Source: Escherichia coli (GTDB lineage Bacteria; Pseudomonadota; Gammaproteobacteria; Enterobacterales; Enterobacteriaceae). Taken from it: a stretch of 64,000 bases of DNA. The DNA lies in NCBI RefSeq assembly GCF_003334785.1, contig NZ_QOWV01000010.1; one strand, 5' to 3'. Shown here piece after piece: positions 5,756 to 5,865 of the stretch (position 1 is its first letter; the number at the start of each line of letters is the position of its first letter). The notes below the pieces were generated by a model. It saw only the letters and a program-made list of their open reading frames with translations. It searched no databases and was not told where the DNA came from. A program made the position numbers and the translations under genes.

Positions 5756-5792
5756 GGTAACCCCAATGGATTAAAATAGATGGCGGAAATAA

Positions 5793-5820
5793 GTATGACG
5801 ATTTTAAGTATTCGTCATAC
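5793..5820. promoter_or_regulatory. NikR operator: GTATGA-N16-TCATAC perfect dyad upstream of nikA
   Basis: Read directly: GTATGA at 5793-5798 and TCATAC at 5815-5820 with 16-nt spacer, about 40 bp upstream of the nikA start; matches the known NikR operator architecture. Confidence 0.85.
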
Positions 5821-5865
5821 TGATTACCTGTTCTGGATCAATAGATGGGCAGTCGGGTGGGCGGA

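Follow-up and report, generated by a model that had tools for sequence, protein, structure and literature searches.

Which regulator recognizes the palindrome that stands in front of nikA in Escherichia coli, and which part of the nikA promoter does this palindrome occupy? We addressed this question in a 64-kb stretch of E. coli DNA (hereafter the window, meaning the whole stretch of 64,000 nucleotides), for which RefSeq gives the neighbourhood zntA, tusA, yhhQ, dcrB, yhhS, yhhT, acpT, nikABCDE, nikR and rhsB. The spacer between acpT and nikA is 110 bp in length (5756-5865). In the first-pass annotation of this DNA, a perfect dyad in the spacer, GTATGA-N16-TCATAC, had been proposed to be the operator of the NikR repressor, and to be located in the nikA leader about 40 bp upstream of the nikA start. 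The positions of the genes and of the regulatory elements discussed below are collected in Table 1. Elsewhere in the window, the small RNA gene ryhB (37658-37722, plus strand; Rfam RF00057, 83.1 bits) is the only member of an Rfam family above the gathering score, and is unrelated to the dyad.

Table 1. Genes and regulatory elements around the nikA promoter, in window coordinates
Feature	Position	Strand	Remark
nikR	433-834	(-)	repressor, 133 aa
nikE	840-1646	(-)	
nikD	1643-2407	(-)	
nikC	2407-3240	(-)	
nikB	3237-4181	(-)	
nikA	4181-5755	(-)	nickel ABC transporter substrate-binding protein; first gene of the operon
Remainder of the nikA 5' UTR	5756-5793	(-)	GGGG Shine-Dalgarno at 5761-5764; unconserved between genera
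Probable nikA transcription start	5794	(-)	A; 39-nt 5' UTR
Promoter-proximal NikR half-site	5793-5798	(-)	TCATAC in the minus-strand reading; overlaps the probable start site
Putative -10 hexamer	5801-5806	(-)	TAAAAT; inside the operator spacer; TAnAAT at that dyad position in 70/70 loci
Promoter-distal NikR half-site	5815-5820	(-)	GTATGA in the minus-strand reading; from direct sequence
NikR operator	5793-5820	(-)	GTATGA-N16-TCATAC; reads GTATGACGAATACTTAAAATCGTCATAC on the nikA (minus) strand
FNR site, class II	5828-5841	(-)	TTGATCCAGAACAG; 8/10 of TTGAT-N4-ATCAA; centred at -40.5
acpT	5866-6453	(-)	

Direct reading of the plus strand at 5793-5820 gives GTATGACGATTTTAAGTATTCGTCATAC, that is, GTATGA, 16 bases (5799-5814) and TCATAC, in which the two inverted GTATGA half-sites fit the operator pattern at 12 of 12 positions over a total length of 28 bp. 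The dyad lies 38 to 65 bp upstream of the nikA ATG, and the distance of about 40 bp given in the first-pass annotation thus holds for its nearer edge. A pattern search of both strands of the window for GTATGA-N16-TCATAC with up to one mismatch identified this site only, against 0.07 expected from shuffled sequences, while the exact pattern is expected about 0.004 times in the window by our own arithmetic. The perfect symmetry reaches past the hexamers to give 10-bp arms (AGTATGACGA and TCGTCATACT), and a looser symmetry detected by repeat search continues beyond, with 17-nt arms of 88% complementarity separated by 10 nt. The dyad region also contains two copies of the direct repeat ATACTTA, 15 bp apart. 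A further direct repeat, of 9 bp and without mismatch, AATAGATGG (read as CCATCTATT on the nikA strand), is found at 5775-5783 and 5840-5848, of which one copy abuts the TTGAT of the FNR site and the other lies in the leader; other genera show no conservation of the leader copy, which is therefore probably there by chance.

The 221-bp segment comprising the spacer and its edges is 100% identical to the sequence of E. coli K-12 MG1655 (NC_000913.3, 3613502-3613722), and therefore the promoter data published for K-12 apply to the window base for base. The NikR protein encoded in the window is identical over 133 residues to the chain in PDB entries 1Q5V, 2HZA, 2HZV and 3OD2, of which 2HZV is the NikR-DNA complex of Schreiter et al. 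2006. Two reviews (PMC7055735, PMC4486848) place the E. coli NikR operator in the nikABCDE promoter and give it as the palindrome GTATGA-N16-TCATAC; they state that Ni(II)-NikR binds to it with nanomolar affinity, and credit this to Chivers & Sauer 2000/2002, Bloom & Zamble 2004 and Schreiter et al. 2003/2006. Nickel-dependent NikR binding and repression, as quoted in the same reviews, have been published for exactly this sequence (PMC7055735, PMC4486848). Comparative genomics gave GTATGAT-N13/14-ATCATAC as the enterobacterial NikR signal (PMC545781). Since the published operator is exactly GTATGA-N16-TCATAC, the region is that of K-12 and NikR is the crystallised protein, the evidence supports reading the dyad as a NikR operator, which makes it a known feature. 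The first-pass annotation had in this respect interpreted a real operator correctly, and the assignment of the dyad to the NikR operator of the E. coli nikABCDE(R) promoter, which goes through reviews quoting the primary work and through sequence identity, is almost certainly right.

Conservation of the region was examined at two levels, within E. coli and among nikA loci of other species. All 5426 complete E. coli genomes contain the segment 5700-5920, which invariably occurs between acpT and nikA, and 5151 of these genomes show no change in its 63-bp core (5786-5848). Two strains that are among the most divergent listed (H39 and H40) carry no substitution in the half-sites or in TTGAT; the changes are located immediately ahead of TTGAT, between the FNR site and the dyad, and within the dyad spacer. 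After scanning of species-representative genomes with NikA, we obtained 80 loci, with nikR lying within the fetched flanks in 62, and the dyad was found upstream of nikA with the same spacing and with a match at 10 or more of the 12 positions in 76 of the 80, the match being exact in 53. For the analysis of conservation we used 70 of these 76 loci, all from Enterobacterales and representing 25 genera, among which 69 of the 70 promoter sequences are distinct, and the information content per column was calculated with genera weighted equally. The mean was 1.87 bits per column for the left half-site (GTATGA) and 1.79 for the right half-site (TCATAC), 1.37 for the dyad spacer and 1.35 for the 14-mer located 8 to 21 nt upstream of the dyad, as against 0.26 for the 29 columns upstream of the dyad and 0.23 for the 50 columns downstream.

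The conservation of the spacer is mostly that of the hexamer TAnAAT at dyad positions 15-20, which is present in every one of the 70 Enterobacterales loci as TAAAAT (53 loci), TAGAAT (10), TACAAT (5) or TATAAT (2). The sequence TTGAT, 21 nt upstream of the dyad, stands at exactly this offset in 68 of the 70, while the right half of the 14-mer is variable. Throughout the 25 genera, the dyad, the hexamer and TTGAT thus keep a fixed mutual spacing within unconserved flanks. A weight matrix was constructed from 51 distinct orthologous sites from outside Escherichia (maximum score, 48.8 bits; since these training sites were chosen by likeness to the dyad, its half-site columns are partly circular), and with this matrix the window dyad reached 43.8 bits, while no other site on either strand of the window exceeded 0.5 bits.

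Outside this set, a dyad matching at 11 or 12 of 12 positions is also located upstream of nikA in distant loci (L067, L069, L070, L071, L074 and L076, from Consotaella, a proteobacterial MAG, Rhizobium, Fulvimarina and Halomonas). These loci carry no TTGAT half-site for FNR, several have a TTGAC-like -35 instead, and in some of them nikR is divergent or upstream and not at the end of the operon. Since the dyad is kept and TTGAT is absent in these distant loci, control by NikR appears to be older and wider than the coupling to FNR.

The conserved 14-mer leads to the second regulator of this promoter. In the first-pass annotation, only a partial sequence, TTGATCCAG, had been noticed on the minus strand, and no convincing FNR box was recognized. 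The partial sequence is indeed present, but the 14-mer of which it forms the left portion (5841-5828) proved to be the published FNR site, with a strong left half, TTGAT, and a degenerate right half, AACAG versus ATCAA. A scan of the window with the FNR consensus was of limited help: with up to 2 mismatches allowed, it gave 37 sites in the window against 30 expected, by which the 14-mer is indistinguishable from chance on sequence alone. Because the FNR consensus by itself cannot identify the site, we relied on its position, ChIP-seq data and conservation. The operon nikABCDE(R) is among those directly activated by FNR (Myers et al. 2013; PMC3688515), and each of the four peak callers applied, three for ChIP-seq and one for ChIP-chip, detected the FNR peak at nikA. 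In the same study, the ChIP-seq summit is at 3,611,605 (U00096.2), one FNR matrix site with PatSer ln p of -9.55 is centred at -40.5 of the nikA promoter, the sigma70 peak at 3,611,651 (U00096.2) rises from 69 under aerobic to 1897 under anaerobic conditions, and nikA expression shows an aerobic/anaerobic ratio of 0.03 (PMC3688515). In the window, the 14-mer has its centre at 5834.5, and 28.5 bp separate this point from the base at which the -10 hexamer starts, a distance corresponding to -40.5. For mapping of the published coordinates, we used the position of nikA at 3,613,667 in NC_000913.3 and an offset of 1977 bp between U00096.2 and NC_000913.3, derived from the two genome lengths. With this offset, the FNR summit falls at window position 5840, within the 14-mer, and the sigma70 peak at 5794. 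On the basis of the published summit and the -40.5 position, together with the occurrence of TTGAT among the orthologous promoters, the 14-mer is a real FNR site.

The arrangement of the nikA promoter then follows from these elements. The TAAAAT hexamer enclosed in the dyad (5806-5801) probably works as the -10 element, and from its position, together with the published FNR position of -40.5 and the centre of the 14-mer, the transcription start of nikA should be close to 5794, the same base to which the sigma70 peak was mapped. The -35 position reads AGGTAA, and a sigma70 consensus promoter scan of 5650-5950 gave no match. At class II FNR-dependent promoters, the FNR site is located near -41.5 and a good -35 is absent, and for this reason the scan result was not counted against a promoter here. 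The supplementary list of start sites of Kim et al. 2012 contains no nikA entry. If the start is set at 5794, the dyad covers approximately -26 to +2, across the core promoter, and encloses the -10 hexamer; the location of the operator in the nikA leader, as described in the first-pass annotation, should accordingly be revised. In window coordinates, the map thus has the FNR site (5841-5828) followed by the NikR dyad (5820-5793), which encloses the -10, and a likely start around 5794, and the cross-genus conservation footprint agrees with this layout of FNR site, dyad, -10 and start.

Two Escherichia relatives carry additional DNA in the nikA leader. In Escherichia sp. MOD1-EC7003 (locus L005), an insert of about 112 bp (4862-4982) closely follows the FNR box and the NikR operator, both of which are intact, and shifts the operator to 149 bp from the nikA ATG. 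The inserted element is a dispersed repeat found in unannotated DNA; the median number of copies in an E. coli genome is 8, at about 80-90% identity, and the core of the element, aatccccaggcgcttactaaagtaagtgactgaggtg, resembles the ERIC/IRU repeat. In Escherichia sp. E1V33 (locus L003), the acpT-nikA spacer is 547 bp in length compared with 110 bp in the window; the promoter and operator are intact at 4480-4530, and behind them comes an insert of roughly 437 bp (4531-4960) that contains an 81-bp tandem repeat in 3.1 copies (4643-4894). Since both inserts start directly after TCATACT, insertion into the leader may occur preferentially at this point.

Readings of the palindrome other than a NikR operator were also considered. 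The palindrome might act at the level of RNA, by folding into a hairpin that, together with a U-rich run (UUAUUU) behind it, either stops read-through transcription from acpT or attenuates transcription in the nikA leader. If transcription covered the whole spacer, the dyad would form a 10-bp stem with a 10-nt loop; TTATTT comes after the stem, and the 110-nt spacer RNA folds at -24.4 kcal/mol, with a z-score of -3.0 against shuffles. Any DNA palindrome, however, folds in this manner, so that the hairpin is no independent evidence, and if transcription begins at about 5794, the nikA mRNA would include just 2 nt of the dyad. Moreover, neither a terminator scan of 5650-5950 nor an Rfam search of the spacer at a permissive threshold gave a match; the dyad is conserved in 76 loci, yet acpT is located upstream in only 10 of these; and the conserved columns are those of the half-sites and the -10 hexamer, with an asymmetry of TGA and CGA tolerated at the inner arm positions, which points to a site for a protein and not to a stem. 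An RNA hairpin was thus rejected as the function of the dyad, the fold being that expected for any palindrome, and we regard it as highly improbable. Still further from likelihood, to a practically negligible degree, is a chance occurrence without function. Short palindromes do arise by chance, but fewer than one in ten windows of this kind would be expected to contain such a dyad even with one mismatch allowed, its distance to the -10 hexamer and TTGAT stays fixed over 25 genera while the flanks drift, and it is identical to a biochemically characterised operator; statistics, conservation and literature together refute this reading.

It is rather unlikely, though less so than either of these, that a second regulator, mainly NarL, acts on the DNA of the dyad, in addition to NikR or in its place. 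Nitrate reportedly represses nikABCDE through NarL (Rowe et al. 2005, J Bacteriol 187:6317). On the nikA strand, TACTTAT at 5795-5789, over the start site, is an exact match to the NarL heptamer TACYYMT, TACTTAA at 5810-5804, in the spacer, matches it at 6 of 7 positions, and the two together form the ATACTTA direct repeat. Matches of seven bases are common by chance, however, and among the 70 orthologous promoters the spacer heptamer fits TACYYMT in none and the 3' heptamer in 22; outside Escherichia, the NarL-like heptamers are poorly conserved. We are equally doubtful of a composite operator, in which NikR and NarL act through overlapping DNA and nitrate represses nickel uptake. Even if true, the involvement of NarL would add to the control by NikR and would not replace it. 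Our literature search found no paper treating the nikA promoter with FNR, NarL and NikR together.

With the dyad as NikR operator and the 14-mer as FNR site, the following mode of regulation may be proposed. The NikR tetramer has two DNA-binding dimers of the ribbon-helix-helix type, one per end. Once its nickel sites are filled, each of these dimers takes one GTATGA half-site, and the half-sites, about two helical turns apart from centre to centre, are presented on the same face of the DNA. Since the operator encloses TAAAAT, Ni-NikR should exclude RNA polymerase: we infer that the bound repressor covers the -10 hexamer and the start and keeps the polymerase off by occlusion. Once nickel is sufficient, the nikABCDE promoter would be shut and nickel import would stop. 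The promoter has no usable -35 and in turn depends on FNR at the class II site, which switches the nik operon on under anaerobic conditions, when [NiFe]-hydrogenases need nickel. The operator ties nickel import to intracellular nickel through NikR, and the FNR site ties it to anaerobiosis; such dual control is how E. coli feeds nickel to its [NiFe]-hydrogenases without poisoning itself, and this known picture is unchanged by our analysis.

As a class II FNR promoter, nikA resembles dmsA, narG and pykA, with which it shares a site similar to TTGAT-N4-ATCAA (at -40.5 in nikA), a poor -35, anaerobic induction and FNR occupancy in vivo. In comparison with the strongest FNR sites, such as that of nirB, with a PatSer ln p of about -16.5, the score of the nikA site is moderate; the right half of the nikA site is degenerate. 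With respect to NikR, the window does not differ from the nikABCDE operator of E. coli K-12 (Chivers & Sauer 2000), having the same 28 bp, the same 221 bp with flanks, the same order of acpT-nikABCDE-nikR and the same NikR protein. The consensus that we derived from the 70 loci of 25 genera, GTATGATGA...TCATCATAC, represents the same signal, with the same overall length, as that described for enterobacteria (PMC545781). Position 7 of the E. coli dyad is C (GTATGAC), in contrast to the commoner T of the enterobacterial signal, and this is within the variation seen, TGA or CGA. The delta-proteobacterial signal, GTGTTAC-N13/14-GTAACAC (PMC545781), differs from that of E. coli in the sequence of the half-sites, as does the site of Helicobacter pylori NikR, which in addition activates some promoters and controls a wider regulon (PMC7055735). 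In both of these systems, nevertheless, the architecture is like that of the nikA operator, two inverted half-sites within about 27-28 bp that are recognized by a tetrameric ribbon-helix-helix repressor.
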